A stretch of 64,000 bases of DNA from Candidatus Micrarchaeota archaeon (lineage in GTDB: Archaea > Micrarchaeota > Micrarchaeia > Anstonellales > Bilamarchaeaceae), in assembly GCA_043821365.1 (NCBI GenBank), contig JBDRCX010000006.1, positions 519,417 to 583,416 of the forward strand. The letters run 5' to 3'. The notes under the pieces are model-generated. The model ran no database searches, was not told where the DNA came from, and was given only the letters and a program-made list of their open reading frames with translations. Shown in pieces: positions 2,684-27,491 of the stretch. The translations under genes and the position numbers were made by a program. Each line of letters opens with the position of its first letter. Position 1 is the first letter of the stretch.

Positions 2684-2824
2684 AAAGGAGATTAGAAAAG
2701 GACCTCGCTCAAAATGCCTTGCATTTTGGGTGTACAAAACCTGCGGTTTTGAACATGGTCCTTTTCATTCTTCTGATTAAAAAAAGGAGATTGAAAGAAC
2801 CTTGGTTCTTTCATTCTTCTGATT
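2684..2824. repeat. Duplicated hairpin unit between convergent lonB and the DUF373 gene; the upstream copy carries a 52-nt double-hairpin insert in its loop
   Basis: Unit B (2783-2824) is AAAGGAGATT-GAAAGAACC-TT-GGTTCTTTC-ATTCTTCTGATT. Unit A (2684-2778) has the same flanks, with stem GAAAAGGACC/GGTCCTTTTC enclosing hairpins at 2710-2728 and 2735-2751. Confidence 0.7.
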
Positions 2825-4052
2825 TCAAAACCACATTATCATCAACAGAACTAACTGCGGACATTGGTATTGAATATCTTTTTTCAAATACATTTTGTAT
2901 GATGAGTTTTCCTTTTTTTGCATCAATGCCAACTATCTTACCCAGGTAACTGCCGTGTTCTGATATTGCTTCTTTACCCTCTATCTTCATATCAAGCAAA
3001 ACTTCTTTCCTATACCAGTTGACAAATAAAGTTACAAAATAACCAACAACCAGTGATATGCCTATACAGAGTAAAAATGTTCCAAAATCAATATATGGTT
3101 CGCTTATATTTGCCACCCACATACTACCGACGAGAAGAACAAAGCTGGTTAGGCCAGCTGCAGCTGAATAAAGCATATGCTTTGCTATTCTGTATTTTTT
3201 CTTTTCCATTAAAGCATCAATGCTTTTTGCAACTAAAATTAGCAACATACTCGTAAAAACAATCCATATAGTATTACCAACAAAAAGTGCAACTATTTTC
3301 TCATTGGCAAGACCCATGCTAATTCCATTCTGAAGTGTTTGGTATCCAACAAAAATACCAATTGTGAGAATTGCAAGTGCACCTATATATCCTATCCAGC
3401 TTGTTCGTTCAAATGAGAATCTAAAGTCTTTTATTACACCTGCAAAAATCTCTTCAAGTCCTGATATTCTGAACAAAAGAGCAAGGCCAATTATAATTCC
3501 AACTATCTGCCAACCCAAACCAAGATAACTTGAAATAGATAAAAGTATTATCAAAACAGCTGGGATTCCAATAACTATTTTTGCAAAATATGGATCACGT
3601 AATTTTTCCAATAAAACAAAATATGTTTTTTCCAGTTCCTTTGCCTGTTTAATGAATACAATCTTTGTTGAATCGACTTTTATTCTTGATTTTATGATTG
3701 GTAGGATTTCTTCATCAGAAGCACCATCAGAAACAAGAATACATGAAGTCGGATTAAATTCCATAACAATTTTTTCAAGTTGGTTACTTATTTCTTTGTC
3801 AGCCTGGTAACCAAGACTTTTGTGTCCTGTTAATGTTGCAACTACTACGTTATGTCCATCTGCTTTCATTTTGTCATGGACTTTGACTGAATAATAAATT
3901 GCATTTGAATCAGGGTCTTCTGGATCTGCCAGTGACAATGCAAGTGCCCCATCAAGGTTCTTTTCCCTTCCTATCAATGGTCCACTTACTTTTGCTTTTT
4001 CGTAAAGATCGTTATCCCGATCTATGCACAAAACCAATATCGGTCGTTTCAT
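2811..4052 (-). CDS. DUF373-family archaeal integral membrane protein
   Basis: N-terminus MKRPILVLCIDRDNDL...GREKNLDGALALSLADPEDPDSNAIY is typical of DUF373, followed by multiple TM helices. The C-terminal approx 60 aa looks PRC-barrel-like. Confidence 0.7.
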   Translation of the reverse strand: MKRPILVLCIDRDNDLYEKAKVSGPLIGREKNLDGALALSLADPEDPDSNAIYYSVKVHDKMKADGHNVVVATLTGHKSLGYQADKEISNQLEKIVMEFNPTSCILVSDGASDEEILPIIKSRIKVDSTKIVFIKQAKELEKTYFVLLEKLRDPYFAKIVIGIPAVLIILLSISSYLGLGWQIVGIIIGLALLFRISGLEEIFAGVIKDFRFSFERTSWIGYIGALAILTIGIFVGYQTLQNGISMGLANEKIVALFVGNTIWIVFTSMLLILVAKSIDALMEKKKYRIAKHMLYSAAAGLTSFVLLVGSMWVANISEPYIDFGTFLLCIGISLVVGYFVTLFVNWYRKEVLLDMKIEGKEAISEHGSYLGKIVGIDAKKGKLIIQNVFEKRYSIPMSAVSSVDDNVVLKSEE

Positions 4053-4124
4053 TGAAATTCCACTAACATTTAACTTTCCAATATCCTTTTTATATTCTTC
4101 TTTTTATTAGTCTATCCTCTTTAG

Positions 4125-12662: not shown

Positions 12663-13571
12663 TCATCTCATGTTTCTAATCCCATTCCAACCAGGACTAA
12701 AATCTACTGGGTTTCCAATTTCTCTAGTGTGAAGCCCATTTCTTCCTATAACTCTCTCATAGAATTTCAATTCATGTGAATTACTATCCATATAGAAAAA
12801 TGGCGACCTCCCACTTCTAAAAGTAGAATAACCTGTGTTTATTCCATAATCCAAGCTTAACATTGCTTCAGGCATTAATCTTACTTCAACCCCAAGTCTT
12901 TCATATTTCTTAACTAACATCCTTTGTGTTAATACGTCAATGTCGGTCATGTCTGTTTTTTTATCATAATATTTTGGTTGTATAAGTAATATTGGTCTAC
13001 TACCATCATTCACTAAAAATAATCTTCTTCTAAATACAAAATCATCAGCACTGTCTTCTCTTGCAACTATCTGTTTTATCCATGGTAGTTCTATTGTGCC
13101 TACTACTCCGCCTATATGGAAAGTTGGTTGATGTGGTTCTTGGCAATTTGGATGTCCACGTACTAATCCACCATATAATGCAGTTTCAAAATCTCCAACT
13201 TCACCAACTAACAGATTGCCTATAGTGGCAGTTGTTTCTTGTCTCCATGCTACAAAAAGGGCTTCGCCTCTTTCTCTTCCCATCAAATTATGAAGTTCTC
13301 TACGGAACTCTTCTGAGAATTTGAATTCCTGAAATTTATGTGCTAAGTATGCAGAAAATGCATCATCAAGCACAGCTATTGCTTCTTGAAATGCCTCTTT
13401 TCTTCCTCTATAATCAATTCCAACATTTTTTGGGTCATTTAATTTTGTTAAATTTGCTCTTATTATACCAACGTCTGTAGTTATCCTATCAACCACTACC
13501 TCTCTCCGAGAAAATTTATCTTGTGTATGTGAAAATTGCACTAATCTTTTTGGAGGTTGTCGTCTATCCAT
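12663..13571 (-). CDS. Stand-alone homolog of the C-terminal module of the giant protein (function unknown)
   Basis: Collinear identity blocks with giant-protein residues approx 4189-4444: FQEFKFS-EFR, WRQ, YGG-VRG, TFHI-G-VGT-ELPWIKQIV, RRR-FL, PIL--QPKY, SGRSP--YMDSN, GLH-RE. Confidence 0.6.
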   Translation of the reverse strand: MDRRQPPKRLVQFSHTQDKFSRREVVVDRITTDVGIIRANLTKLNDPKNVGIDYRGRKEAFQEAIAVLDDAFSAYLAHKFQEFKFSEEFRRELHNLMGRERGEALFVAWRQETTATIGNLLVGEVGDFETALYGGLVRGHPNCQEPHQPTFHIGGVVGTIELPWIKQIVAREDSADDFVFRRRLFLVNDGSRPILLIQPKYYDKKTDMTDIDVLTQRMLVKKYERLGVEVRLMPEAMLSLDYGINTGYSTFRSGRSPFFYMDSNSHELKFYERVIGRNGLHTREIGNPVDFSPGWNGIRNMR

Positions 13572-13611
13572 ACTATTCTCTTGTTACGTAAAGTTTAATA
13601 ATCTACCACAA

Positions 13612-14148
13612 TTAGCCTACTGCTGTCCTATTCCTTCCACCAGTTCCATACTGTCTTCTTCCGATACTTGCCCTTAGACCTAAATCTGGTTTTTTGAGTA
13701 CTCCATTCTGTCTTACTAAAAGAATTGCTTGTGCTGAAAACTCTCTATCACTAATCATCTTCAGTAGCTGTATAGTTGTTTTATTAAGGGCAAAACCAGA
13801 ACTTGTTACTTTTGATAGTAGTTCTAAACCATATTTTGTAAGTTCCTTTTTTGTTTCTTTATGTCCAACCATCTCAAGTGCTCTTGTCAATAATACCTGT
13901 CCACTAACTTCTACGAATTTCATCCAGTAATCTGTTGATGGAAATTTGTCAAACATCTCACTGATTTTACTAAGTTCTGAGGTTGAGGTTTCGCCTTTTA
14001 CTACTGCCACAATTGTTTGGCCAATAATTGCAAGTTTTTTTACATTTTCATTATGATCTCTTGACAACACTTCAACAATTTTGTTTCCATCCACTTCTCC
14101 TGAGTACCATATTAAAGTGAAAAACATTGTTCTTGTATCATCATCCAT
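13612..14148 (-). CDS. Hypothetical protein immediately downstream of the giant gene
   Basis: 178-aa ORF starting 8 nt after the giant ORF stop, on the same strand. Helical, with a G/R-rich C-terminus (GRRQYGTGGRNRTAVG). Confidence 0.5.
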   Translation of the reverse strand: MDDDTRTMFFTLIWYSGEVDGNKIVEVLSRDHNENVKKLAIIGQTIVAVVKGETSTSELSKISEMFDKFPSTDYWMKFVEVSGQVLLTRALEMVGHKETKKELTKYGLELLSKVTSSGFALNKTTIQLLKMISDREFSAQAILLVRQNGVLKKPDLGLRASIGRRQYGTGGRNRTAVG

Positions 14149-14156
14149 AAAACCAC

Positions 14157-17100
14157 CTAATCCTTAATCAGTTCCCCTGTGATGTCACGCCTTTCGTTCC
14201 AGCCTTTTTGAAATATGTCTGGCTGTCTGTATCCCTCACTTGTACCTGGTTCTCTATAATGCAATCCATGGCGTGCAAAGACTATACCTTCTCTTCCTGC
14301 TCTAACTACATAACCATTACTATCCATATAATAATATGGCGATCTACCACTTGTGAATGTTCTATATCCTGCATTTGGACCAATGTCATTTGCATATGCG
14401 TGATCAATGTCTCTTACTCCTATTCCCATCTCTTCATATCTTGTGCGGATGCTTGCCATTACTGCAGTATCTATTTCTGCCAAGCCTGGCATATCCTTTG
14501 CTCCATATTTTGGTTGTGCAACTAATATTGGATTGCCGTCGTCTCCTTGCATGAGGAATATTCTTCTTCTGTATATTATTTCCCCTGCTGGATTTTTGAT
14601 CACAATCTGTTTTATCCATGGCAATTCTACTGTTCCAACTATTCCTGCAATGTGGAATGTCTGTTGTGATATATCTTGACAGGTGCGTTCTCCTCTAACT
14701 CGTCCGCCATAAAATCCATCTTCAAAACTTCCAGTTTCAAGTATAGTGTGGGTTGCATCTCCAACTGTTACTTGATCTGCAGTATGATTCTGTCTCCAAG
14801 TTTCAAATATTCTGCTTCCTCTTTCTTCCCCAACTAAACTAATTAATTCTCCTCTAAATTCGTCGCTAAACTTAAATTCTTGGAATCTTCCTTCTGCCAT
14901 TGCCCTAATTGCTTGATCAAAAACAATAGCAGCCTCTCCGAAACCTTCTTGTGGTCCATAATAGCCAACCAAGTTTTGTGTTGATCTTGGTGCAGCTTCC
15001 GTAAGATTACCACGATATTGTGTATAATCCATTATCAAATCAATATTTTCTAATATAAATGCAGCTGGAAGTTGGACATCAGAAGGTATGAACAATTTGC
15101 CAATTTCAGAACTAACTGTTTGTGTAAAAGCATCGATTGGAAGAACCCCACCATCGGGCCCAATGAGGTTTCTGCTTATCCTTGCAAGATCTGCGGGTGA
15201 TACCTTTCCATCTAAGTATGCATTGTATATAAGGTCCATATAATCTATCTTCCCTCTTGTTCTACTACTTCCTAAAAATTCTGCTTTATCTGCTTTTGTT
15301 GCTCCATCTCTTGCAATATATTCCAATTCTGCTCCTACTAATCTTAACCATGGTTCTACTGTTGTGTTCCCACTTGAATTGAAGATATTGTCCATTAAAT
15401 CTGCAACTTGTCTGAAATTTGCATGACTTCTTAGTTCCTTTCTTATAGCATCGCTACTCAATGCACGCAATACTAAACTTCTTGGAACTGGTCCAGTTTC
15501 AGGTAGTAAATATGTTGCAAAAGGAAGCCTATTTGGTCTTACACTTAGTTGGTCTGCTCTATCTGCAGTTATATCACCAAGAAGTATTGTTTCTTGCCTT
15601 GTTTTTCTCCCAACCTTAACATCAACTCTTATAGCAAGTGCTTCACTAAGAACCCCAAAATCTAAATTGTCTAAATTGCTTCCAATCAATTGCATATATG
15701 CTTCTCTTGATTCTGCAGTTGGAAGTCTACTAACATCATCAAATAGATATTCGAAAATATGTTTTACTACAGCTCCTCTTGCATCCGGATCTGTTATCTG
15801 ATCTAGTGGAATTCTATCGAGTAGTCTTCTGCTTGTTTCTGTTGCTTGCTCAAGCATTCTGAAACTATCAACATCAGTTGGCCTGAAATTATCAAGCAGT
15901 CCATTTCTAACTCCTGGTTTGACCTCATGTGAGAGCAGGGGTACTGGATCCACTCCAAGTAAATGAAGTTTTGCTGCAAATCCAAGAACATTACCAATTT
16001 GTCCTATAGTTATAAATCCTTCAACCTGCGCATAATGCAAATGTTCATCAAGTGCTGCAACTGTTCTTGAATATGCCTCAAGCATCTGCACTCTTGTTTC
16101 TTCTGGTGCTGTTCTTCTGATTGTTTTTGCACCTGCCATGACAGCATCCCTCATCATCTCAGGACTGCTGGAAAGAGATTGGTCAAGTGTGTCTAAAATG
16201 TGTGTTTCTTTTGCACTATTAACTTCTCTACTTATTTCTCCTTCGTAATATGTGCGTAATTCTGCAGGTGTCATTCCATCGTCAGCTATTCTGACCAAGA
16301 GTATATTCTCTACGCCATCATATTCAAAATTAAACTGAACATTCCCATCTTCTCTAATTACTGCTTCATATGTTACTCTGCTTGGAAGATCACTTTCTTC
16401 CATCCCTAATATTGATCTGCTTGGTGGTTTTGTTACATCTGGTCTTTTTACTACGACTTCTCTTCCTGCATAAACATCATCTGCTGCTTGAGAAATTGGA
16501 TTTCTTAATATTGTGGTTCTGTCTCTTCCATTTGTGAAATCAGTTGGCACATGTGAATCATCAGCAACACCAATCAAGTGGGGGCTATCTTCTGGTGCTC
16601 TGCTAGTATGGAGTCTTGCAGGGGCTGTTTTTCTAAGTGGATCTATTACAACAAATCCACTTCCTCTTCCATATGCCTCACTCATGCTTGCATCTAAATT
16701 GGTAACATATCCTCCAGCTGCCCTAACTCCTTTTCCTCTGGAATGGCCAACATAAATATGATCAACACCAAGTGCTTCTCTCCATTGAGCTGCAATCTCC
16801 TGGCTCATAATTGGTGCCCATCCATGCCTTCCTTCAACATATGCAGAAGAGTAATCTCCACTTTCCATAACTCGTATGTCTCCAAATACTGTTCCCCAAT
16901 GGTTATCTGCAGTAGTAAATAATCTTTGGAAATGTGCATCCAACATTTCAGGACTTGTAATTAACTGCCCATCACTTTGCAATACTGGTCCACCATGTGT
17001 GAAATAATTATTATCTATTATTACTGCTGCTCTTGACTGTTCAATGAAATGCATGAAACTTCCTTCTATTACTCTTCCTTGCTGATCATAATTTTCATGT

Positions 17101-20100
17101 ATGAAATTTTCCCAACTTCCATATCTTTCAATAATCGATTCAAATGTTTGGTCCACACCAACACGGCTCCACTGCTTCATGGCACCCATTATGTCATCTG
17201 CATTGGCCTTCCCTTCAAATACGGCTCTAACCTCTTGATCGCTTGAACCTCTATAAAATTCTACAAATCTTCTAAACAATTCTTCATGATTGCCTCTCAA
17301 TGCATGCACCCTAGTTCCTGTTTGCCCACCATCTGATTTCATCTGGCTTACTAATTCCACAACATCTACGCTTGTTGGTCCACGATCAATATAATCTCCC
17401 ATAAAAACAATCTGGCTTCCTTCTGGTAAATCTGGGTTTAGTCTATACCTCTTGGCAGGTGGAACATATCTTGGATCAGTTTTTGGCAATGTTCTTGGTA
17501 TCCCTTCCATAGTGTCAATTAAGATTCCTTGTCTAAGGAATTGGTCAACAACACCATAAACATCTCCATGCACATCACCAATTGCTATTACCTGACGTGC
17601 ATTTTGGATTACATCAACATAAGCACCTTGTTTCATGGTTGGTGGTGAACTTTCTATTGCTTCAAGGACTGTTCCATATCTATCTGCTATTGCAATTGCT
17701 TCATCTAAACTCCCAGTTCTAATTGCTTCTTGGTACGTTGCATCACTACCAAGTTGTTCAGCAAGCATTCTTTCGTTTGCAGTTCCTAATTTACTATCTT
17801 CAGCAATTAAATGAAGGCGGCGTCCTAATTTTGTACTTTCTGGTATCCTTTTTCCAAGTTGTTGTTCTTGTACTGCTAATTCTACTTCTCTTTCTTGTTG
17901 TCTAACTCTATACCTATATGCATGGTCTGGTTCACCAGTTCTTTTTTGTACTGGTGCTAATCTCGGTGCATCATCAACTATTGCAAGTGACATTCCGTCT
18001 GGTGATCTTGTTATTGCCTGGCGCCTTATTTCAAATGTTCTACCCTCGGTTAATACAAAGTCTTGAAATGCTTCAAGCATATCAGCTCCACGTGGTTCTG
18101 GTAATCTCCTAAGTTTAATTACAAGATCCTCTACTTTCCGTAATTGTGGATTTTTTCTTATTACTTCAGTAATGTCCCTAAGTTTACCAAGCCCTAATCT
18201 TGTTAATGTATCATCATTACCTATTGCCATTGCAGCAATAATCGCATCTGCACTATCATAATTTTCTGAACCCCACAACATCCTCAAGCGTCCATTTGAT
18301 ATTGATGCCATTGCATCTGCAAAGTTTGCGTTTTCAATTGGTACTGCTCCTTGTTTTTGTACACTCATTTTTACTCCTGCACTATGTAATTGTTCATCGA
18401 TAACTCTTGCCATCACAGTTGCATCAGCAGGTGTTCCGCCTTCAATCACATATTTCATTGTTCCTAAACGTCTTACTGTGACACCGTGTTCTGTTGCATA
18501 TCTTGCAACTGCAGCTTCTACAGTACTAACAAGGTAATTTGCACCATCATGGCCAAGGAATGTATTGAATCCACGCAAACCAAATGCATTTCTTTCTACT
18601 TCTGCATATCCTTTTCCTGTTATCTCTAAGTATGGTGTTTCAACTGTTCTTTCTACTCCTGGAAGTCTTCCTCCTATATCAACATAAGCTTGATTATCAT
18701 CTATTTGGAGCCTTACTTCAAATGCAGTTCCGCTAACTGTTTCTCCATCTCCAACCTGCCCTATTGATTCTGATAGTTTCCATCCAACTCCTGTTCTTAC
18801 CCCTAATCTTTCTCTAAGTGATGGTGCAAAACTCAAAGAACCATCTTCTTCTGCTCTAGTTATTAGCCCTTCTAAAAACCCTATTCTGCTTTCAGAACGC
18901 TGCAACATGGCATCGCTTCCATCAGCATGTACTGCAACTGCTCTTCCGTCTTCTGCTCTTCCAACTGTTACTGGTCTGCTAATATCATATGATGCTTCAA
19001 TTAATCTAAGTGGGTCTGTCATTAATGAAAGTGAATATCTTAATCTTCCAGAACCATCTGATGCCGTGCTAATTCTTTGGAATTCAGCATCAGTAACTGC
19101 TCTCATTTCTTGTCCTAGTCTTGTTCTAACGTCTTCTCCTTTTCCTTTTGGTACTATTATGATTCCTACTGCTTCATCCCCACCTCCACTTGGTGGGCGT
19201 ATTATGTGTGCAGTTTGTTCTTGACTATCCCCAATGATCCTTCTTACTGCTCCTTGTATTATGTCTTGATAAACTCCAAGAGCTTGATCCCCAACTTCTT
19301 CTCCAAACATTTTATTGATCTGACTTAGTGATTTTTTATCTGGTCGTATTACGATGACATCCATTTCTTGTCCTTGCATTGCGTCCGACAGAATCACATC
19401 TTCGATTGATCTAACCATTCTTCCAATTGAAACTTCTTCGCCAGCAACAGCTTCATGTCCAATCAACCATTCGGGTTGCCCTGTTCGTACTAACTCACCA
19501 TCAATCAACTCAACTCCTGCACGTCTGAGAACATGTCCAACTACATCATCAGTTTTGAAAAGTTCGCGACTAGGTCGCAATCTTACAAATTCACCTGCTT
19601 CAATTGATTCTGGTTCAACTACTGGTGCCCTAGTTTCTGGTTCAACTACTTTTGTTTCTGGTCCTCTTGTTCTACGTCCTTTGCTAATAGGAGTAGGTTC
19701 AATACCCTCTGCTCCAACAGCAATTGGCATCGCTGTTTCAGTAACTCTTGCTTGTGCACCTACTTTTCTTGGGTGCCCAACCATAAGTTTTATCACAATT
19801 GTTGGGCTCCCTTCTATATCTTGAGATACTGCAAAACATCTTGCTTTTGCTTCTGGTGTATCTGGTATCTCACCACGTATGGCTGCTTGATCAACAAGAT
19901 CTTCAAATTTTATTTCTGCTACTGGTCTTCCTGTTCTTTTTGATGCTTCTAAAACAATTTCTGATGTTTCAAAGCCAGCCATTCTTCGTAATGCTTTCAA
20001 ATTCTTTCCTGGTTTTGTTGGGCTGAGTTCTCCTCTTTGTATCCCACTGCCCATTGCTATTTTTGCTTCTTCAAATAATGTGAATTCACCTTCATATTTT

Positions 20101-23100
20101 CTTACCAAATGAGCAGGTCTTCCTGAAACTAGTGAGTAAGTATCTTCAGATGTTGTTAATCTTCTTACTAATGAATGTATTGCAGTTCTTCCTGCTTGTC
20201 CTTCTTGAGTTGCACCAAACAATCCAATTCTTAGTTCTCCTCTTGGTGTTCTGCTTGCAGTTGCAAATGCAACTATTCTTCCACCCTCTCTTGCTACAAA
20301 CCAAATTGGTGTTACTTCTGTAAATAATTTTTCAGGATTACTATAATGTAAGTCTGCAGCACCATAAGCTTCATCATAAAGTCTTTTTATCTCAGGCCAA
20401 GCTGCTGCTCGTTCTTGTTCAGTTATTTCAGACCATGGTCTTTTACCATCAACTTCAATATCAGTAATTGCTCTTTTTCTTTCAACAAATTCCTGGCTTT
20501 CATCATGCCTAACTGGTTCAAGTGTTCGTAATTTTGCAGCCAATTTTTCAGTTCCTTGCTCAATTCTTGTTGCAAATTCCTCTAGTTGTTTTGCTCTTGC
20601 TGTTTCTCCTGCCTCGCGTAAAACCTTTGCTTCACCTCTGAATCTACTTACATTTGCTTTTCTTCTTGTTATAGTTTCTCTTAGATTCTCTACTGTTACT
20701 GGTCTTTCTAGTAATCGTTGTTCTTCAGACATTGCCCTTATTACTATAGCTTCTGGTTGCCTTGCTATTTCTGGTATTTTCATTGCTGCATCAAGACCAA
20801 ATTCCAACTGTCTTGCTCTGCTTTTTCGATTAGCTAAATATTCAGGATTTAATGCAAGTTCCATTGCATGCCTCTGAACTTTTTCAGGTTGCCCTCTAAG
20901 TGCTTCTGCCACAAATGCTCTTTTTTGTTCTGGGGGCAATGAAGCAAATTCTGGATTATTAAGAATTCTCTCTGCACTACTTACAATTCTCAGTGCAGTA
21001 TCAACATGTTCAGAAGAATAAGTTTTTTGTTCTTCTCCTCTCCCTAATCTATATGTTGTTCCATCTTCACCGGGTTCTATGAATCTACTTTTTAATTGTG
21101 CATGCAAAACTTGTTCTGCTGCTCTTTCACGACGTTCCCGCATTTCTGTTGTTCTATCTACAGGGGCATCTTGTTCTGCATCGTGGGGATGTCCTCCTGG
21201 TATCTCAGCTTCTGGAGGATTAAGGAAATATACTTCGGCTTCTGCCAAAAATTTCTCAGTTGCTGCAGCACCTAGTGGTCTAAATTCAGTTCTTCCGCCA
21301 ACTTTTCTTGTTGGTATTCTATCCATGAATACCAATCCTTCTTCTGGTGTAAGACTTCTTCCTAATCGCAATTCCATCTGGCCATACAAAGTTTTTTGTG
21401 TCTCACCAAGTTGGCCGAATCTTTTTCCATGTTGGGCTCTTAGTGCGGTTGTCTCTGCAAGGCTCATTGTATGAACGGTTTCTCCAGTCAGGCCAGTCAT
21501 CACTCCTCTGAAAATTTTTGCTCCTCTTGTGTCTTGGGATGTTCCAGCAACTCTCCATGCTCTTGCAGTTCTTGTTGGTGCAACATGCGCTCCAACTGGT
21601 GCTGTTGCTTGTACTACACCAAGTACACCAGTTGTAAAGAATTCTAATCCACCTATATCTCCATGTATCCATGCTTTTCCAGATTCATAGGCTCCATAAC
21701 CTGCCATTCCAAGGCCGCCTGCCATTAGCCCCCCACCAAGGACGGTGATTCCTCTCCCACCAGTTCCCATCATACTACTAAACATTGTCACTCTGCCAAC
21801 TGCAAGAGATTCATTTGCAATTCCACTTAAACTACCAAGTGCTGCACCACCAAAACCCAAAACAACTCCACCTACTCCAAGTACTTGTTCTGCTGTACCC
21901 ATCTGCGAAAATCCACCTGATCTTCGGCTATTTTCTGCTAGATCATGAAGTGCCTTTGTTCCAAATCCAACACCAACAACTGCTCCAAAACCAGTTGCAG
22001 TAAGTCCTAGTGCAAGAGTAAGTTCAACTCCTGCCTGTATCCCTCTTGCAGTACTTTCAGAACTCTGGCCTTCTTTTAAAAGGCGGCCATAGTCTGTATC
22101 ATATTGTCCTGCAAAATCTGATGTTTCTGCATACAATCCTTGAATGTATTCATCAGTAGCTGGTTTTCCACCTTGTAATCTATTCTGCAAAACTCCATTT
22201 ATAACTTCTAAATCATGATCTGCATAAGTAGCTACAACATCATACATTTGTTTTCTTTCACTATATGACCAAATTGTTGTAAGTCCAAGATGAACTCCGA
22301 AATAATCGCCAAGCAATTGGCTTATACCTTTTATGTCTTTTGTCCCTGTTGCATGCGCAAGAACAACTTTGTGTTCTTCTGGTGTGAGGCGTACCTGGGT
22401 CCATCCATCATCTTCGTCCCAGGCTATTCCCATTTTTGCAAATGTTGCAGTTGTGTATAAGTCAGCTAATTTTATTGGTTCGCGATGTGCTGCAAGAGCA
22501 AACCTGTCTCCTTCAACATGTTTAAATCCAACAGAATATGTTTGTAGCGAATCTAGATATCCATGCATGGCAGCGTATAATGCATGTGGAATGTCATCAT
22601 AATCAGCACCGGCACTAATTTTAGCATCATCATAAACTCCGTCTCGGTCTCTTATCTTTACCTCTATTGCCGGTAGACTGACCTGCCCCCCGCTTAATAT
22701 TTTGCGTGTGATTCCTTCAGGATCAGATGCAGCTGCTCTTCCAATTTGGAGTAAGTCTGCTGCTCTCCATCTTAGATTCATGTTAAAAGGGCTGTAACCA
22801 TGGGTTCTTACGTACTGGTCAACATTATCAAATAGCATTATTGAATCTTCCAAACAACTCATGGCAAGTTGAGCACCAGCATTGAATTGATCCACTCGTG
22901 TACTAATTCTACTAAACTCAAGATCAGCTGTTAATTGTGCATGCAATCCGGGTCTTATCTGATCATGTTCTTGAAGATAAGCCAACCCCTTTCTCATTGG
23001 TGTGCCATCTTCTACCATTTCTTCATAAACTGCCTGGCCTCCTTTTTCTATTCTTCTTTGATTATATATCCTACCATTAAATCCATTTGTGGCTTGATAT

Positions 23101-26100
23101 ATCCCCCATATCAAATCCCTACTATATTCTGGTTTGAATGTATCTGCATATCCTTCTGTTAACATTACATCAATTGATGTTCCAAGCACTCTTGAGGTTT
23201 GTACTAAATCTTCTCTGACTTCTTTTGCATTTCCTGCAAGGGCTCTTGTTATTCCTGTGGCAAGTACAGCATCCAAAACTTGCTGGTGTGCTCCTATTGC
23301 TGCATAATCTATTTTTTCATCACCTTGTGGTATCTCTTGTGGTTTTCCAAATTCGCCTAAGTTGTGTTCAAGTCTTGTAAGTTCAACTTCTCGTTGTCTT
23401 AAGTATTCCATCTGACTAAGTCTTTGCATTCCTACCTGGTAGACTGAAGCAAAACTAGCAAAACGTTGATTGGTTTCATCGATTGTTCCGTCCAGTTCTC
23501 CTGAACCTACTCCTCCACGGCTTAGTTCTGCAATATCACCATCAATTAGATGAACAACCTCAGCAGTCTGAAGTCTTAAGTGATGAGCAGTATCAGATAA
23601 TTCACTTGCGTGATGGACTATTATTTCTCCTATTTCTCCCTCTTTCATCTCACCGTGTGTTCTTTCGATTTTATCTTCCATACTAGCTAATCTTCCTGCA
23701 TTCACTTCCAAACCAGTTTTTTGATACATTCTTCTAATCATTAACGGTTGGTTTGCTGTAAATTGATCTAGTTGTATTCTAACGTATTCAAGTTGTTGAT
23801 CTATTGATTCAGGTGTACTTGTTCCGTTCACCATTCTATCAATTTCATCATCAACTTTTCCTGCAGCTGCATCAAGCTCTGCTGCTAAAGTTGCCGCACC
23901 ACTTGCAATAATTTGCCGTGATTCTTGTGTTCTCTCTTTTGTTTCTGGTTCCATTCCCTTTCCTTCGGTGGTGTCTGCATATTGTTGCATTAATGCTTCT
24001 GCCTGTCTTTCAAATGATCCTCTTTCCAACAATAACATCTGTGATTGCTGTGCAAACTCAACTCTTTTTGGGAATGTTGCAAGTCTTAGTTCAACTTCCC
24101 TAAAGTTTCCTGTGGCCCTGGTCATATCAATGCTATAAACTTCTTCCATAAGGCCACGGTAATCAAATCCCACAACTACTGGTTCACCATCATTGCCAGT
24201 TTTTATCTCAGTTCTTAATACCTCTCCATCTCTTTGGCTGTCATCAGCCATATCAAATAACATTGCATGTTGCTGGTGAATGTCTACTTTTCTCTGATCT
24301 AATTGAATTCCAAAAACCGCACTTTTCAATGTTTTCTGAGCGTGTCCAAATCTTTCTCTTCTTGCATATCTTTTCGCAAGTTCAAGTTCTTGCATTCTTG
24401 CCTGTGTATCAAGTAAAGGAGTGCCTGCTTCTATTGTTGCACCAGCATGTTCTACAGTTGCTGCTAAGGTTATCGCACCCTCTTCTCTCCCGCTTCCATG
24501 TTGCTGGTCAAGTTCTCTAAGTCTTGCTTGTTCTGCTTCTATGCTTTTTACAAAACGTGCAACAGTATGCTGTATCTGTCTTTCTCTTCCAACTTTGGCC
24601 CCTCCTTCTAACATAGTATATGATGCACCTGCAATCATCCTACGTTGAGTGTCATCAAGTTCTGGCTCTTCAATTTTGGATAACTCAAGTAATATTTGTG
24701 CAGCTTCATCATACTCTTTTCTCCCTCGGTATCTGTGTATTGTTCTTATTGTTGTTATGCTTGAATGAAGTTGCAATAATGCCTGTTGGCCTTGTTGGGA
24801 AAGATAAATCATTCTCAATCCTTTTTGTTCTAAAACATCTGCTTCTGGTGTGCCTGCTTTCCTCATTGTTCTTGCTTGTTGGACTAGTTCAAGTCCCCTT
24901 GAATAACTGGTACTAAATCCTTCTGCCATTGTTGTTATCCTTTCGTAATCTATCCTCTCAGCTTCTTGGGTCTGTATATCTGCTTCCAGTATCCTTCCTG
25001 CTTTTTCAGCAACTGTGGCTTTCCTTTCGTGGTAACCACTTTGTGCTGTATAAGTAGCACCAATCCTTGTTTGTTGTGTTGGTGTTGTTCCAATTATTTT
25101 AGAACCAGTTCGCTGGAATTCAAGTAGCATTAATCGACTATCATGTTCCTGCTGTATACTTTCAAGTGAAGCAATTCGTTTTGTATCACCAACTGGCAGA
25201 AGTGCTACTAGTTTTTCATCTTCAGAAGAATTAATTGTATTTATGAAACTATTTCCACTGATCAAAGCAGTTCCTAATGGTCCAGATAGTGTTGTTGGTA
25301 CAAACCTTTGTGGATTTCCCTCTTCTAAAAGCATATCAAGTATCCGGTGGTCACCAAGTGCAGTACTACCCCTATAATCGCCAAGAACAGTCCTTACAAA
25401 TTCTGGTATTTCCTTCTCACCTGGCTGCTTTGCTGCTCTACAATAAAGATCAGCAAGATCTCTTACTCTTTCTGCCCCTTCAACATCCCCTCTTGCAAAC
25501 AAAACCTCTGCTGCATCATAGTATGCTTGTATGTTCCTTCGTACACTAGAGCTTGGTATCCCTTCCATTCCCTTTTGTTTTCTTAGTTCTGCCTCGAGTA
25601 TCCATCTGACTTTTTCTACAGGTAGACTTTCAATTTCCATTCTTGTTATCTCATCTGCTATGGTTGCTACATCTCTGTCATTTATTGGTCTCGAGCATGC
25701 ATTTGCTCCAAGGATATATACAAGAAATTCTTCTTGCGATTTATCCCCTTCTATTGCATCCTGTGCTCTATGTAAGATGTCTATTGTTCCGTAGAAGGCC
25801 AAATCTCTTGCTTTGCCTGTGATATCAGCTACGTTGCCAAGTGTTCTCAAGGAAGGGTCCAATGTATGGATTCCATCTCCGGCTACAAATGATGCAATCT
25901 GTTCTGGCTTTCCAAGGTAAAGTATTTGCATTCTTCCATACGCTGTTCTTTCTTTATCAGTTAATTCTTCACCATTTGCAATCTTTTCAAGTAACCTGTC
26001 CATATACTCTATCGGGCGACTGTACAAATCAGTAAGATCAATCTGTTTTTTCTGTCTTGCAGTTTCATGTAACTCAAGAATTGCAAGTTGTGTTTTGGTT

Positions 26101-27491
26101 ATCTCAATATAAACAGCAGTTTCCTGAACATGTTCACCTGCTGTTAGTGATATGCCATGAAGCTGTGCTCGTTTTTCTGGTGTTGTTAATTTATTGGCAT
26201 ATAATTGGCTAAGTTCAATTTGTATTTGCATCTGAGTACTATCACTAGAAGCCATGGCAGCAAAAATTCTCTCATGAATTCCGTTGAATTGTTCTAATTG
26301 TTCTGAACTCATGGATTGATAACTTTTCAAATAAGTTTCAACTATTTTTTGTAAACCGCTTGCAGTATATACCTGTTGCAATGTTGCTTCATCTGTTTTC
26401 AAACCAACTATTGCATCATGCAGTCCACCTACTGTTGGAATTTCTTGGCTTTCAATGTCTGCAATTAGATGATCTCTGATCTCATTTCTAACTGTTGCTT
26501 CATCTTTTCTACCAGTTACTAAGTCGTCGCTCCATGTTGCTAATTTTTTCCTAAATGCACTATCAGCAGTTTCATACTGAGCTAATATGTATTCATATAA
26601 TGCAAGCTCATCTTCTTTCAGTGTTCCTTGTTCAGCAAATTCTGTTCTCAATTCTTTAACTCTTACATACATTCCTTGGATAAAACTTGGTGGGGCATCA
26701 CGCATTCCTAAATCTTGTAGGTGCTCTATCATTCCGTCTATTCCGGCAAGCTTTTGTTGCTTTAGAATCCCAACACCATCTCTGAATCTTTGCATTACTT
26801 CTTGGAGTTCTTGATTATTTTCATCAGTAAATTCTTGTCCTGCATCTATCTGTCTCTTAAGAACTTGTGACACTTGGATGATACCCTGTCCAAGGCTACT
26901 TTGCGGTGTTATATACTGTTTATTAGAAATAAAAAATTCTGATAATTCTATCAATCCCTTAATCCTTTTTTCAGATAGGCCATAGTCTTGGAAAGATGCA
27001 CGCAATGCCTCAGTCAGTTCTTGTGGTGCATCGACAAGTCTTTTTTCAAGCGCTATTATAGTTACCAATCCAGTAAGTTTTGCTTCTGCTTCATCCATCA
27101 ATTCTCTTGATTTTTCTAGCTGTCCGGTTCTCATTTCCTGTATGCTTTTATCTGCTAAACTTCTAATGCGTGCAATCTCTGGCGTATACTTGGTTAATGA
27201 TTCACCATCTAATCTTTCGGATATCTGTCCATCCAATGCTCTACGTCTTTGTTCAACAGCTTCTACAGTTGGTAATGTTGATCCAAGTGCTCCTGCAGTT
27301 TCTGCAAGTTGAGTTCTAGCATGATCAGCAGCTGCAGTAGCTTCTCTTAATTCCCGTTCTGCTCTAGCACGTGGCCCTCTTCTCGGAGTTATGCTTGCCA
27401 GTCCACCTGCAACGTCTCGTACTTCCCCTACAACTCGGTCGGCCTGTCCTACAGCAAGTTCAACATCAGTTGGTCTAACCTGTTCAGCCAA
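14157..27491 (-). CDS. Giant multidomain protein (4,444 aa): helical N-terminal region, glycine-zipper hydrophobic segment, GGDEF-like palm domains, PPP-family phosphatase domain and a novel C-terminal module
   Basis: Uninterrupted 13,335-nt ORF in an AT-rich genome with a TTG start. Motifs read directly: GDVHGD / GDYIDRG / GNHE; GGGDE; G/A-rich hydrophobic repeats. Confidence 0.9.
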   Translation of the reverse strand: MAEQVRPTDVELAVGQADRVVGEVRDVAGGLASITPRRGPRARAERELREATAAADHARTQLAETAGALGSTLPTVEAVEQRRRALDGQISERLDGESLTKYTPEIARIRSLADKSIQEMRTGQLEKSRELMDEAEAKLTGLVTIIALEKRLVDAPQELTEALRASFQDYGLSEKRIKGLIELSEFFISNKQYITPQSSLGQGIIQVSQVLKRQIDAGQEFTDENNQELQEVMQRFRDGVGILKQQKLAGIDGMIEHLQDLGMRDAPPSFIQGMYVRVKELRTEFAEQGTLKEDELALYEYILAQYETADSAFRKKLATWSDDLVTGRKDEATVRNEIRDHLIADIESQEIPTVGGLHDAIVGLKTDEATLQQVYTASGLQKIVETYLKSYQSMSSEQLEQFNGIHERIFAAMASSDSTQMQIQIELSQLYANKLTTPEKRAQLHGISLTAGEHVQETAVYIEITKTQLAILELHETARQKKQIDLTDLYSRPIEYMDRLLEKIANGEELTDKERTAYGRMQILYLGKPEQIASFVAGDGIHTLDPSLRTLGNVADITGKARDLAFYGTIDILHRAQDAIEGDKSQEEFLVYILGANACSRPINDRDVATIADEITRMEIESLPVEKVRWILEAELRKQKGMEGIPSSSVRRNIQAYYDAAEVLFARGDVEGAERVRDLADLYCRAAKQPGEKEIPEFVRTVLGDYRGSTALGDHRILDMLLEEGNPQRFVPTTLSGPLGTALISGNSFINTINSSEDEKLVALLPVGDTKRIASLESIQQEHDSRLMLLEFQRTGSKIIGTTPTQQTRIGATYTAQSGYHERKATVAEKAGRILEADIQTQEAERIDYERITTMAEGFSTSYSRGLELVQQARTMRKAGTPEADVLEQKGLRMIYLSQQGQQALLQLHSSITTIRTIHRYRGRKEYDEAAQILLELSKIEEPELDDTQRRMIAGASYTMLEGGAKVGRERQIQHTVARFVKSIEAEQARLRELDQQHGSGREEGAITLAATVEHAGATIEAGTPLLDTQARMQELELAKRYARRERFGHAQKTLKSAVFGIQLDQRKVDIHQQHAMLFDMADDSQRDGEVLRTEIKTGNDGEPVVVGFDYRGLMEEVYSIDMTRATGNFREVELRLATFPKRVEFAQQSQMLLLERGSFERQAEALMQQYADTTEGKGMEPETKERTQESRQIIASGAATLAAELDAAAGKVDDEIDRMVNGTSTPESIDQQLEYVRIQLDQFTANQPLMIRRMYQKTGLEVNAGRLASMEDKIERTHGEMKEGEIGEIIVHHASELSDTAHHLRLQTAEVVHLIDGDIAELSRGGVGSGELDGTIDETNQRFASFASVYQVGMQRLSQMEYLRQREVELTRLEHNLGEFGKPQEIPQGDEKIDYAAIGAHQQVLDAVLATGITRALAGNAKEVREDLVQTSRVLGTSIDVMLTEGYADTFKPEYSRDLIWGIYQATNGFNGRIYNQRRIEKGGQAVYEEMVEDGTPMRKGLAYLQEHDQIRPGLHAQLTADLEFSRISTRVDQFNAGAQLAMSCLEDSIMLFDNVDQYVRTHGYSPFNMNLRWRAADLLQIGRAAASDPEGITRKILSGGQVSLPAIEVKIRDRDGVYDDAKISAGADYDDIPHALYAAMHGYLDSLQTYSVGFKHVEGDRFALAAHREPIKLADLYTTATFAKMGIAWDEDDGWTQVRLTPEEHKVVLAHATGTKDIKGISQLLGDYFGVHLGLTTIWSYSERKQMYDVVATYADHDLEVINGVLQNRLQGGKPATDEYIQGLYAETSDFAGQYDTDYGRLLKEGQSSESTARGIQAGVELTLALGLTATGFGAVVGVGFGTKALHDLAENSRRSGGFSQMGTAEQVLGVGGVVLGFGGAALGSLSGIANESLAVGRVTMFSSMMGTGGRGITVLGGGLMAGGLGMAGYGAYESGKAWIHGDIGGLEFFTTGVLGVVQATAPVGAHVAPTRTARAWRVAGTSQDTRGAKIFRGVMTGLTGETVHTMSLAETTALRAQHGKRFGQLGETQKTLYGQMELRLGRSLTPEEGLVFMDRIPTRKVGGRTEFRPLGAAATEKFLAEAEVYFLNPPEAEIPGGHPHDAEQDAPVDRTTEMRERRERAAEQVLHAQLKSRFIEPGEDGTTYRLGRGEEQKTYSSEHVDTALRIVSSAERILNNPEFASLPPEQKRAFVAEALRGQPEKVQRHAMELALNPEYLANRKSRARQLEFGLDAAMKIPEIARQPEAIVIRAMSEEQRLLERPVTVENLRETITRRKANVSRFRGEAKVLREAGETARAKQLEEFATRIEQGTEKLAAKLRTLEPVRHDESQEFVERKRAITDIEVDGKRPWSEITEQERAAAWPEIKRLYDEAYGAADLHYSNPEKLFTEVTPIWFVAREGGRIVAFATASRTPRGELRIGLFGATQEGQAGRTAIHSLVRRLTTSEDTYSLVSGRPAHLVRKYEGEFTLFEEAKIAMGSGIQRGELSPTKPGKNLKALRRMAGFETSEIVLEASKRTGRPVAEIKFEDLVDQAAIRGEIPDTPEAKARCFAVSQDIEGSPTIVIKLMVGHPRKVGAQARVTETAMPIAVGAEGIEPTPISKGRRTRGPETKVVEPETRAPVVEPESIEAGEFVRLRPSRELFKTDDVVGHVLRRAGVELIDGELVRTGQPEWLIGHEAVAGEEVSIGRMVRSIEDVILSDAMQGQEMDVIVIRPDKKSLSQINKMFGEEVGDQALGVYQDIIQGAVRRIIGDSQEQTAHIIRPPSGGGDEAVGIIIVPKGKGEDVRTRLGQEMRAVTDAEFQRISTASDGSGRLRYSLSLMTDPLRLIEASYDISRPVTVGRAEDGRAVAVHADGSDAMLQRSESRIGFLEGLITRAEEDGSLSFAPSLRERLGVRTGVGWKLSESIGQVGDGETVSGTAFEVRLQIDDNQAYVDIGGRLPGVERTVETPYLEITGKGYAEVERNAFGLRGFNTFLGHDGANYLVSTVEAAVARYATEHGVTVRRLGTMKYVIEGGTPADATVMARVIDEQLHSAGVKMSVQKQGAVPIENANFADAMASISNGRLRMLWGSENYDSADAIIAAMAIGNDDTLTRLGLGKLRDITEVIRKNPQLRKVEDLVIKLRRLPEPRGADMLEAFQDFVLTEGRTFEIRRQAITRSPDGMSLAIVDDAPRLAPVQKRTGEPDHAYRYRVRQQEREVELAVQEQQLGKRIPESTKLGRRLHLIAEDSKLGTANERMLAEQLGSDATYQEAIRTGSLDEAIAIADRYGTVLEAIESSPPTMKQGAYVDVIQNARQVIAIGDVHGDVYGVVDQFLRQGILIDTMEGIPRTLPKTDPRYVPPAKRYRLNPDLPEGSQIVFMGDYIDRGPTSVDVVELVSQMKSDGGQTGTRVHALRGNHEELFRRFVEFYRGSSDQEVRAVFEGKANADDIMGAMKQWSRVGVDQTFESIIERYGSWENFIHENYDQQGRVIEGSFMHFIEQSRAAVIIDNNYFTHGGPVLQSDGQLITSPEMLDAHFQRLFTTADNHWGTVFGDIRVMESGDYSSAYVEGRHGWAPIMSQEIAAQWREALGVDHIYVGHSRGKGVRAAGGYVTNLDASMSEAYGRGSGFVVIDPLRKTAPARLHTSRAPEDSPHLIGVADDSHVPTDFTNGRDRTTILRNPISQAADDVYAGREVVVKRPDVTKPPSRSILGMEESDLPSRVTYEAVIREDGNVQFNFEYDGVENILLVRIADDGMTPAELRTYYEGEISREVNSAKETHILDTLDQSLSSSPEMMRDAVMAGAKTIRRTAPEETRVQMLEAYSRTVAALDEHLHYAQVEGFITIGQIGNVLGFAAKLHLLGVDPVPLLSHEVKPGVRNGLLDNFRPTDVDSFRMLEQATETSRRLLDRIPLDQITDPDARGAVVKHIFEYLFDDVSRLPTAESREAYMQLIGSNLDNLDFGVLSEALAIRVDVKVGRKTRQETILLGDITADRADQLSVRPNRLPFATYLLPETGPVPRSLVLRALSSDAIRKELRSHANFRQVADLMDNIFNSSGNTTVEPWLRLVGAELEYIARDGATKADKAEFLGSSRTRGKIDYMDLIYNAYLDGKVSPADLARISRNLIGPDGGVLPIDAFTQTVSSEIGKLFIPSDVQLPAAFILENIDLIMDYTQYRGNLTEAAPRSTQNLVGYYGPQEGFGEAAIVFDQAIRAMAEGRFQEFKFSDEFRGELISLVGEERGSRIFETWRQNHTADQVTVGDATHTILETGSFEDGFYGGRVRGERTCQDISQQTFHIAGIVGTVELPWIKQIVIKNPAGEIIYRRRIFLMQGDDGNPILVAQPKYGAKDMPGLAEIDTAVMASIRTRYEEMGIGVRDIDHAYANDIGPNAGYRTFTSGRSPYYYMDSNGYVVRAGREGIVFARHGLHYREPGTSEGYRQPDIFQKGWNERRDITGELIKD
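16650..17600 (-). other. PPP-family (calcineurin-like) Ser/Thr phosphatase or ApaH-like metallophosphatase domain inside the giant ORF
   Basis: IAIGDVHGD (17562-17579), MGDYIDRG (17379-17399), RGNHE (17283-17294), downstream THGG and VGHS. Confidence 0.8.
19000..19380 (-). other. GGDEF-like nucleotidyl-cyclase palm domain inside the giant ORF
   Basis: MDVIVIRPDKKSLSQINKMFGEEVGDQAL...IRPPSGGGDEAVGIIIV is collinear with the GGDEF pattern (D-x-D-x-FK-x-iND-x-GH-x-GD ... GGDEF). GGGDE lies at 19173-19187. Confidence 0.55.

Follow-up and report, generated by a model that had tools for sequence, protein, structure and literature searches.

The free-standing 302-aa gene found downstream of a giant protein gene in Candidatus Micrarchaeota is probably, though by no means certainly, an ancient paralog of the constant domain at the C-terminus of the Micrarchaeota giants that has been passed on vertically, and not a swappable toxin cassette. 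Our best guess for the locus as a whole is an enzyme-like C-terminal module accompanied by an obligate small partner and a trans-acting paralog. The module and its small partner are two protein families without database annotation, the module being previously undescribed.

Results

The window, a stretch of 64,000 nucleotides of contig JBDRCX010000006.1 from a Candidatus Micrarchaeota MAG, carries a giant ORF of 4,444 aa (14157..27491; the listed start is a TTG and the true start is uncertain), a small partner gene of 178 aa (13612..14148) and the free-standing module paralog of 302 aa (12663..13571), all, like every feature given below, on the minus strand. The small gene starts 8 nt past the giant's stop codon with a GGTG motif upstream, and encodes a protein of pI 9.4 with a basic C-terminal tail; the free copy has its own ATG, 40 nt past the small gene. 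The positions given for these ORFs in the first-pass annotation are exact. It had also proposed that the giant's C-terminal module is duplicated in the free gene, which BLASTP bore out when the 302-aa ORF was compared with the final 447 aa of the giant (124/281 identical residues, 44%, E 1e-67; free copy aa 38-301, giant aa 4160-4437), and all the identical blocks that it had quoted (FQEFKFS, WRQ, YGG-VRG, TFHI-G-VGT-ELPWIKQIV, RRR-FL, PIL--QPKY, SGRSP--YMDSN and GLH-RE) lie in the alignment. The free copy carries an N-terminal extension of ~37 aa that is missing in the giant. At 100% identity, it matches an NCBI protein encoded on a 798-kb contig of a Candidatus Micrarchaeota MAG. On the evidence of BLASTP, AlphaFold and Foldseek GNAT matches, the giant's module comprises aa 4151-4444 (14160..15041); the limit given earlier, nt 14925, was set too short, similarity beginning ~30 residues (~90 nt) upstream, at ~nt 15012. 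The DNA of the two copies is diverged, as had been noted, with 56% nucleotide identity over 262 aligned codons, 45% identity at third positions and a dS of ~1.6, which indicates saturation. In agreement with the earlier view, the duplication is not an assembly artefact: 7 further independent assemblies (8 with the truncated L005 contig) show the same order of giant, small gene and free copy.

A profile search returned 43 representatives of the module family, mostly the C-termini of proteins of 3,000-7,252 aa, and the module forms the end of nearly every member whose C-terminus is complete. Every named giant comes from Micrarchaeota; the giant family is specific to this DPANN lineage and the module is its constant C-terminal hallmark, with no relatives found in the viral contigs searched for it. 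In pairwise BLASTP comparisons the only region common to all eight giants compared was C-terminal, while the middle blocks differed and were re-ordered. This constant region (aa ~3784-4444, 14160..16142), which exceeds the part duplicated in the free gene by ~350 aa, was mostly covered by the alignments to 6 of the 8 full-length giants compared, whereas those to P0029 and P0038, which are the most divergent, start only at aa 4011 and 4114, respectively. In outline, some 1,800 hydrophilic residues at the N-terminus of the giant are followed by a Gly-rich hydrophobic cluster, then by enzyme modules in a variable array, and finally by the ~650 aa of the constant C-terminal part. Kyte-Doolittle scans found hydrophilic N-termini across the family, and most members have a mid-protein hydrophobic cluster similar to the Gly-rich segments at aa 1824-1891 of the window giant (21819..22022), which, judging from their sequence, probably form a membrane-inserting region. 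Pfam searches of the whole giant and of 500-aa chunks recognised Metallophos alone, namely a calcineurin-like metallophosphoesterase module (aa 3301-3463, 17103..17591) with intact GDVHGD, GDYIDRG and GNHE motifs, which is variable cargo present in only some giants. Further cargo includes a weak GGDEF-like stretch (GGDEA at aa 2770; 19122..19382; Pfam E 0.014, below threshold) within a variable block, aa 2639-3164, common to P0024, P0027 and P0030, and a second variable block, aa 2341-2575 (19767..20471), common to P0020 and P0030 at differing relative positions and with a sub-threshold Acetyltransf_1 hint (E 0.14). Another giant has a precomputed RelA/SpoT Pfam match.

The first-pass annotation had raised the question of whether module homologs occur at the C-termini of other large proteins next to a small gene that co-varies with them, and the survey answered it in the affirmative: a homolog of the ~180-aa small gene directly follows the module in 16/16 independent loci examined, with a gap of 1-10 nt where gene calls exist. 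No locus has a second small-gene homolog, including those with two copies of the module. The free copy follows the small gene in 8 of the 16 loci (9 counting the truncated L005 contig) and is missing from roughly one locus in three, so the giant can function without it. The small protein matched no immunity family, RHH or other Pfam family, and weak PDB profile matches (E 0.014) hint at a helical-repeat character. The cassette is core-genomic, vertically inherited and embedded in housekeeping synteny, with RtcA, NAC, S3Ae, S15, Ham1, RNAP subunit L, Csl4-like, DUF373 and LonB genes as shared neighbours in the window, L001, L003 and L005. A sporadic, laterally transferred distribution was considered and rejected on the basis of these same neighbours, the parallel branching described below and the lack of viral relatives.

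As had been suggested, the duplication is old, and selection acts on both copies. All three genes are under purifying selection, with ω values of 0.17 for the free copy, 0.13 for the giant C-terminus, 0.13 for the small gene and 0.20 for the rest of the giant (ortholog ω 0.13-0.17 for the two copies), and between the window and L006 the C-terminal module is 77% identical compared with 72% for the rest of the giant. Orthologs of the free copy, 302-333 aa long, are known from at least 8 assemblies that are independent and derive from different samples. The free copies were monophyletic in both neighbour-joining (NJ) trees, with a bootstrap of only 45-50% for monophyly, and the free clade branches in an order parallel to that of the giants; for none of the 7 genomes was the free copy sister to its own giant in any bootstrap replicate (0/200 in each). 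The free copy retains every family-conserved residue, and the free and giant classes keep the same conserved residues with no columns that discriminate between them. One sub-lineage gained a full-length free copy of the module downstream and has retained it since.

The earlier statement that the domain is unrecognisable is fair at the sequence level, because 30 module members had no Pfam or NCBIfam match even at E up to 10 and the module had no sequence match in the PDB; it does not extend to structure prediction, which places the core in the GNAT fold. AlphaFold models of the two module copies had pLDDT values of 79 and 94 (giant module model: pLDDT 93.9, pTM 0.91) and predicted a 5-helix bundle (~nt 14793-15038) followed by a GNAT-like α/β domain (~nt 14172-14786). 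In Foldseek searches of the PDB with both predicted structures, the best 25 matches were all GNAT acetyltransferases, as were nearly all of the best 50, with probability ~1.0, E ~1e-3, TM (target) ~0.5 and rmsd 4-5 Å over ~125 columns. The scores are weak and the matches consistent, which suggests that the α/β core is a highly divergent GNAT-like fold. The predicted core β1-α1-α2-β2-β3-β4-α3-β5 resembles that of RimI (7n1l), SSAT (3bj8) and AAC(3)-I (4yfj), and its β4-loop-α3-β5 pattern (ILLxQPxY...helix...GxExR) is GNAT-like. Unlike GNATs, however, the module has no sequence or profile similarity to the superfamily (a comparison by hhalign with two bona fide GNATs of related loci reached a probability of 0.1%, the GNAT profile being very small), measures ~290 aa instead of the usual ~150 aa, adds the N-terminal 5-helix bundle and carries an invariant Cys. 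GNAT motif A (Q/R-x-x-G-x-G/A), which binds the CoA pyrophosphate, is missing from the β4-α3 loop in 30/30 sequences, all of which have Q-P-x-Y followed by variable residues without the Gly signature, and helix α4 is not predicted, a conserved loop and β region standing in its place. Against the GNAT assignment, which comes from structure prediction only, stand the modest Foldseek scores, the missing α4 and motif A and the lack of a sequence signal.

The module has 15 invariant and ~27 near-invariant positions. The invariant Cys (Cys4271, codon TGT at 14679..14681 in the giant; Cys143, codon TGC at 13143..13145 in the free copy) is present in 30/30 module sequences, where it lies in the α1-α2 loop; it is retained in a distant clade of ~20-30% identity, in which an Arg, the Gln/Glu and one Tyr also persist. 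The giant has 5 Cys in 4,444 aa, and Cys143 is the sole Cys of the free copy. Other conserved motifs are Q/E-P-x-Y at the end of β4 and R-S-P-x-x-Y-x-D-x-N. Judged by topology rather than by measurement in 3D, the conserved residues would line the usual GNAT active-site cleft. Of the Cys-His catalytic pair suggested earlier, the Cys stands, whereas the TFHI His is present in 17/30 sequences and is replaced by Val, Thr or Ala in 13/21 giant copies, which makes a family-wide Cys-His dyad unlikely.

Discussion

In the mechanism that we tentatively propose for an ancient paralog of a constant domain, the C-terminal domain would be an enzyme-like (acyl/aminoacyl-transferase-type) or ligand-binding unit complexed with the small protein, and the free paralog might, by analogy, serve that complex as an additional soluble subunit or isoform. 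That the module interacts with the small protein and the free paralog is purely inferential. NatA/NatE bring together a catalytic GNAT, a helical auxiliary subunit that is not catalytic and a further GNAT paralog; for our three components this is a functional analogy only, with no homology. A small gene directly past an enzyme-like C-terminal domain is also how a toxin-immunity or effector-inhibitor pair looks.

It is conceivable, if unlikely, that the locus encodes a non-polymorphic effector-inhibitor pair. The GNAT-like domain would then be a host-directed enzyme that the giant delivers or releases, with the small protein inhibiting or chaperoning it in the producer cell, and the free copy would supply more of this effector in soluble form, dependent on the same inhibitor. 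The placement of an enzyme-like domain at the extreme C-terminus of a giant in an obligate symbiont, the presence of the small gene in all 16 loci, within 1-10 nt where gene calls exist, its single copy beside two modules and the other enzyme cargo of the giant would all fit, and GNAT-fold toxins neutralised by small partners are known (TacT/AtaT). GNAT toxin-antitoxin modules of the TacT/AtaT/KacT type consist of a ~170-aa toxin with an acetyl-CoA motif and an upstream RHH-type antitoxin, whereas the present module is larger, giant-fused and devoid of motif A, and its partner lies downstream and matches neither RHH nor other Pfam families. Moreover, Pfam and motif scans recognised no secretion or processing signal in the giant, nothing in the family is more conserved than the module, which evolves under strong purifying selection and does not bear the marks of an arms race, no immunity family accounts for the small protein, and a single invariant free Cys with basic partners would suit a cytoplasmic housekeeping-like complex equally well.

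Rather unlikely, in our judgement, is a non-catalytic role, with the module as a GNAT-like pseudo-enzyme that oligomerises or docks the giant to the small protein and cell components, and the free copy as a competitor or cap regulating assembly. The missing CoA-binding motif and α4, the lack of a sequence relation to active GNATs and the location at the extreme C-terminus of the giants speak for it, and GNAT domains commonly dimerise. However, the invariant and near-invariant positions include active-site-type polar residues (Cys, Gln/Glu, Tyr, Asp, Arg and Asn), the Cys, Arg, Gln/Glu and one Tyr survive in the distant clade, and the Cys has been retained in otherwise Cys-depleted proteins.

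A broader and more speculative reading, to which we give little probability, makes the Micrarchaeota giants modular enzyme-cargo carriers that would act on the host archaeon or where the symbiont meets it, much as multi-effector toxins do, with the Cys-containing GNAT-like domain, the small partner and the free paralog as a new activation, modification or delivery unit common to the family. The cargo seen so far comprises the metallophosphoesterase, the sub-threshold GGDEF-like and GNAT-like hints and the RelA/SpoT match in another giant. MARTX toxins, which are characterised by RTX glycine-rich repeats and a C80 cysteine-protease domain, likewise have constant ends and a variable, re-ordered central array of enzyme modules, and by analogy the Gly-rich segments of the giants could insert in membranes. 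Pfam detected neither RTX repeats nor a C80 domain in the giant, release and delivery of the cargo are hypothetical, and archaea are not known to offer a type I secretion context. The SPEARE giants of Nanohaloarchaeota (Hamm et al. 2019, PMC6642349) are likewise specific to DPANN; they measure 3,000-8,500 aa, span the membrane and have a presumed role in host interaction, containing laminin-G/adhesion, serine protease and type III restriction-enzyme domains and a transmembrane segment near the C-terminus. As in the Micrarchaeota giants, the C-terminal part of SPEARE is the most conserved and the rest is variable; in contrast, the hydrophobic cluster of the Micrarchaeota giant lies mid-protein and its conserved end is the GNAT-like module, and no partner gene or paralog cassette is mentioned in the SPEARE passages considered (PMC6642349). 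None of the SPEARE-type laminin-G/adhesion, serine protease or type III restriction domains was found by Pfam in the window giant and four other members.

The first-pass annotation had likened the locus to a polymorphic toxin/immunity locus, that is, one where a large protein delivers the toxin at its C-terminus, an immunity gene follows and an orphan cassette is available for recombination, and this we now regard as highly improbable. The gene order fits superficially, and the resemblance to CDI/Rhs orphan-cassette systems extends to a large protein, a small gene that always accompanies the module and a stand-alone copy of the C-terminal module. Variable C-termini, however, define polymorphic toxin systems, of which classical ones are rare in archaea (Zhang et al. 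2012, PMC3482391), and the family-wide constant C-terminus with variation in the middle is the inverse of that arrangement. Pfam searches of the whole giant and its chunks and a motif scan revealed no RHS/YD, VENN, DPxGL, LXG, WXG, HINT, secretion or pre-toxin features; the trafficking, repeat and pre-toxin domains of CDI/Rhs proteins are lacking. The orphans of polymorphic toxins are promoter-less or truncated tips with their own immunity gene and a homology handle, a description that the free copy does not fit: it is a complete gene that starts at its own ATG, is extended at the N-terminus, has orthologs and is under purifying selection, there is no second small gene, and 56% nucleotide identity to the giant provides no recombination handle. 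Together with synteny beside ribosomal-protein genes in distant Micrarchaeota, this means that the defining features of such a locus are already contradicted. As for the free copy having been duplicated in assembly, or being what is left, as a pseudogene, of the tail of a second giant since lost, the presence of two giants in one MAG (L011 and L015) makes such a loss conceivable as its historical origin, but the intact ORF, the ω of 0.17 and the orthologs in at least 8 independent assemblies, with all family-conserved residues retained, refute this for its present state and leave it a negligible probability.

The "toxin plus orphan cassette" label, though intuitive, would therefore be wrong here, which is relevant to the automated annotation of such loci. 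Micrarchaeota genomes measure only ~0.8-1 Mb, yet this one giant gene takes up ~1.7% of the 798-kb contig. Retained across the phylum with a fixed C-terminal domain, a fixed partner gene and a long-kept paralog, the giant is a strong candidate for a role that is central to the cell biology of DPANN archaea or to their interaction with hosts and that has yet to be described. The Cys, Q/E-P-x-Y and Y-x-D residues are candidates for mutation. Upstream of the giant, a 104-aa coiled-coil-like ORF (27500..27814) ends 8 nt before the listed start and, as judged in the window, may be a fourth gene of the operon.

Duplication of the giant's C-terminal module

On the minus strand of the window, the giant ORF (14157..27491; 4,444 codons counted from the first TTG) is followed by a small ORF of 178 aa (13612..14148) and a free-standing ORF of 302 aa (12663..13571), an arrangement that the first-pass annotation had placed correctly, with the small gene between two copies of one module. 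When the 302-aa protein was aligned by BLASTP with the giant's final 447 residues, 124/281 positions were identical (44%, E = 1e-67) across free residues 38-301 and giant residues 4160-4437, and all of the identical blocks quoted in that annotation were recovered in this alignment. The module duplication is confirmed, far beyond chance, with homology starting near nt 15012, ~30 residues upstream of the limit set earlier. The DNA of the two copies is diverged, as had been noted, with nucleotide identity of 56% across the 262 codons aligned (45% at the third positions) and a saturated dS of ~1.6. This saturation made the dN/dS ratio between the paralogs uninformative, so ortholog pairs were used instead. 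NCBI proteins ABH842_04975 and ABH842_04980 match the 302-aa and 178-aa proteins, respectively, at 100% identity and come from a Candidatus Micrarchaeota archaeon MAG, and the giant gene alone occupies ~1.7% of its 798-kb contig. Neighbouring genes in the window are of the archaeal housekeeping type, encoding LonB, DUF373, a Csl4-like exosome subunit, Ham1, ribosomal proteins S15 and S3Ae, NAC, RNA 3'-phosphate cyclase, a tRNA-editing domain protein and ProRS.

A small gene accompanies the module at every locus compared

We compared 16 independent loci carrying a giant C-terminus (the window, L001, L003, L006-L008, L010, L011 and L013-L020), drawn from NCBI MAGs, JGI metagenomes and Logan assemblies, whose six-frame ORFs were scanned by HMM. 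In 16/16 loci the gene immediately 3' of the module encoded a homolog of the 178-aa protein, with exactly one per locus, which bears out the expectation that the small gene co-varies with the module. The gap between them was 1-10 nt where gene calls exist, a GGTG motif lies just 5' of the small gene's ATG in the window, and no fusion of the small protein to a giant was seen. The small proteins have in common the motifs FFTLIW, P-TDYW-F-E-SGQV and GFP-L-ET and a basic tail, with a pI of 9.4 for the window protein. The main rival reading of this pairing, an effector-inhibitor (immunity-like) relation between module and small protein, is in our estimation unlikely; searches of the small protein against Pfam and PDB profiles returned only noise (a designed helical repeat, E = 0.014; Imm3 for 1/10 members, E = 0.12). 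We favor a partnership in which the small protein would bind physically to the module domain.

The free copy comes next in eight loci (the window, L001, L003, L006, L008, L010, L011 and L016) and is also present in L005, whose contig begins within the small gene, while none occurs within at least 1.3 kb downstream in L013, L014, L015, L019 and L020; the three remaining contigs were too short to score. At L001, an AP-endonuclease gene on the opposite strand (AP_endonuc_2, xylose isomerase-like TIM barrel; 8651-9943, minus strand) sits between the small gene and the free copy, indicating that the free copy is not obligatorily co-transcribed and that the cassette tolerates a break at this point. 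The MAG DeMMO3_13 (JAGVNI01) contains two paralogous giants (L011 and L015), each followed by a small gene and only one of them with a free copy. At L010 (2-4100), the giant's module is split over overlapping frames (ORFs 2..3799 and 3522..4100), a split that could stem from misassembly or from a frameshift, the latter making it a possible pseudogene; the downstream small gene and free copy are intact. RtcA, NAC, S3Ae, S15 and Ham1 are the cassette's neighbours in the window and at L001, L003 and L005.

Age of the duplication and selection on the cassette

Two NJ trees, built from 36 and 42 modules, each placed the free copies in one clade nested among giant C-termini (bootstrap 50% and 45%, respectively), with a branching order paralleling that of the neighbouring giants, and in each of seven genomes the free copy was sister to its own-genome giant in 0/200 bootstraps. 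Mean identity was 52% among free copies and 54% among their giants, compared to 45% between the two classes. For ortholog pairs between the window and L006 (dS ~1), the NG86 omega was lowest, at 0.13, in both the small gene and the giant C-terminus, against 0.17 in the free copy and 0.20 in the giant's remaining 1,800 aa. Collectively, the tree, identity and omega data indicate that the duplication predates the divergence of these lineages, in agreement with the earlier proposal of an old duplication kept under selection. By the same data, there has been no gene conversion between the copies, and all three genes are functional. The cassette is conserved and vertically inherited, and comprises a giant with a constant C-terminal domain, predicted to be GNAT-like, an obligatory small gene and an ancient free paralog, limited to one sub-lineage and with all conserved residues kept, which may work in trans as a second subunit or a soluble isoform.

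A giant-protein family with a constant end and a variable middle

A word-indexed search with the free ORF found only eight relatives, all of ~300-377 aa and all from Micrarchaeota. An exhaustive profile search of 1.84 billion representatives detected the module in 43 proteins, usually as the C-terminus of a 3,000-7,252-aa protein and less often as a free-standing protein of ~310 aa; every giant with a source name was from Micrarchaeota, one of them labelled only 'metallophosphoesterase'. A scan of viral contigs gave no module relatives, and no published account of this Micrarchaeota family turned up in our literature search. The finding leads to a giant-protein system of DPANN archaea that is phylum-wide and has not been described before.

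When the window giant was compared pairwise with eight full-length giants, only the C-terminal region was common to all eight, where it could be aligned from ~aa 3784 onward in six giants and from aa 4011-4114 in P0029 and P0038, the two that diverge most. N-terminal and mid-protein likeness was weak and patchy, and the enzyme blocks of the middle were present in some giants, missing from others and arranged in a different order. The window giant has three variable cargo blocks: aa 2341-2575; aa 2639-3164, which contains a GGDEA motif; and aa 3186-3677, which contains a metallophosphoesterase whose GDVHGD, GDYIDRG and GNHE motifs are intact. The GGDEF-like match at the GGDEA motif (19122-19382, minus strand) is sub-threshold, and the PrpE/Pnkp-like metallophosphoesterase (17103-17591, minus strand) is a solid match; a precomputed Pfam match to RelA/SpoT exists in the family giant of L003 (151-7068), and Pfam searches of four other giants found no match. 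The recognisable blocks resemble nucleotide-metabolism or signalling enzymes, which could hint at nucleotide second-messenger chemistry. Most giants have a hydrophilic N-terminus, a Gly-rich hydrophobic cluster at ~aa 1,400-2,400 and only 3-13 Cys in total. The first ~100 residues of the window giant, as listed from the TTG, are rich in Ala, Arg and Gly and unlike the remainder, so its true start codon is uncertain. Eight nucleotides separate this listed start from the end of a 104-aa coiled-coil-like ORF (27500-27814, minus strand), a candidate fourth gene of the operon.

In polymorphic toxin systems, which are rare in archaea, variable C-terminal toxins are swapped by recombination with stand-alone cassettes (PMC3482391). 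With its variable middle and constant C-terminus, the giant family is the opposite of a polymorphic toxin; only a superficial gene order is common to the two, and a varying C-terminus, secretion or processing domains, orphan cassettes with immunity genes of their own and a sporadic distribution were all looked for and not found, leaving the classical orphan-cassette model advanced in the first-pass annotation highly improbable. The nearest described concept is that of the SPEARE proteins of Nanohaloarchaeota, DPANN giants in which the C-terminal part is conserved and the rest varies (PMC6642349); their domains differ from those of the window giant. MARTX-type toxins resemble the giants in their layout of constant ends and variable cargo, but none of the MARTX signature domains is present in the giants.

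Predicted structure and conserved residues of the module

Neither single module sequences nor any of the 30 aligned members matched Pfam, NCBIfam, PHROGs or PDB sequences. AlphaFold2 models of the free ORF (9 sequences; pLDDT 79, pTM 0.81) and of the giant's last 294 aa (30 sequences; pLDDT 93.9, pTM 0.91) both displayed a bundle of five helices and, after it, an alpha/beta domain. With either model as query, the top 25 Foldseek matches in the PDB were all GNAT acetyltransferases, as were nearly all of the top 50, including RimI, SSAT and AAC(3)/AAC(6'), with a probability of ~1.0 but an E value of only ~1e-3, a target TM of ~0.5 and an rmsd of 4-5 A over ~125 columns. The modelled order of elements fits beta1-alpha1-alpha2-beta2-beta3-beta4-alpha3-beta5, with a conserved loop and beta region predicted in place of alpha4, and the beta4-alpha3 loop reads Q-P-x-Y, without the CoA-binding Q/RxxGxG/A motif; hhalign detected no relation between the module and either two genuine GNATs or the GNAT-like block inside the giant. 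Given the modest Foldseek scores, the replaced alpha4 and the absent CoA motif, we term the module a predicted divergent GNAT-like domain rather than a demonstrated acetyltransferase. Among viral structures (BFVD), the model of giant aa 4151-4444 matched several uncharacterised phage proteins and three 'PcfJ-like' proteins, the latter over long alignments (200-315 columns) but with an rmsd >13 A. A helical-bundle-plus-GNAT-like architecture common to the module and PcfJ-like proteins is possible but unproven, with sequence-level support absent; a search of the literature on PcfJ brought up nothing but unrelated plasmid names from C. elegans.

Fifteen columns were invariant over 30 sequences, including a Cys (C143 in the free copy, where it is the sole Cys, and C4271 in the giant, one of five), P-W, a Tyr, the Y-x-D motif (Y260, D262) and a Gln (Q198/Q4326) replaced by Glu in a distant clade (P0044-P0052). 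R181 and Y201 were near-invariant (28-29/30) and invariant in that clade. No column discriminated free from giant copies, so neither class has lost the conserved site. The module domain may be an enzyme-like or ligand-binding unit, with a putative pocket formed by the Cys, Q/E-P-x-Y and Y-x-D. The Cys-His catalytic pair suggested earlier was rejected on conservation: its His is found in 9/9 free copies and in only 8/21 giant copies, the other 13 having another residue there, Val in 11.

The distant clade was related to the main family at an hhalign probability of 99.5%, and a word-indexed search with it found one 236-aa fragment. Its module core mostly forms the C-terminal end of proteins of 750-1,457 aa, and P0051 (3,777 aa) has two internal copies. 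These 750-1,457-aa proteins carry 'SNPxFxPxxHL'-type repeats and come from low-GC organisms.

Other features of the window

Two tandem large ORFs on the plus strand, of 1,746 and 1,656 aa (50861-56101 and 56094-61064), both contain repeats of the right-handed beta-helix type (Pfam Beta_helix; E = 4e-8 and 8e-13, respectively) and probably encode symbiont surface or adhesin-like proteins. A 960-aa protein with an S_layer_C domain (38369-41251, plus strand; E = 4e-14) is the likely S-layer protein.
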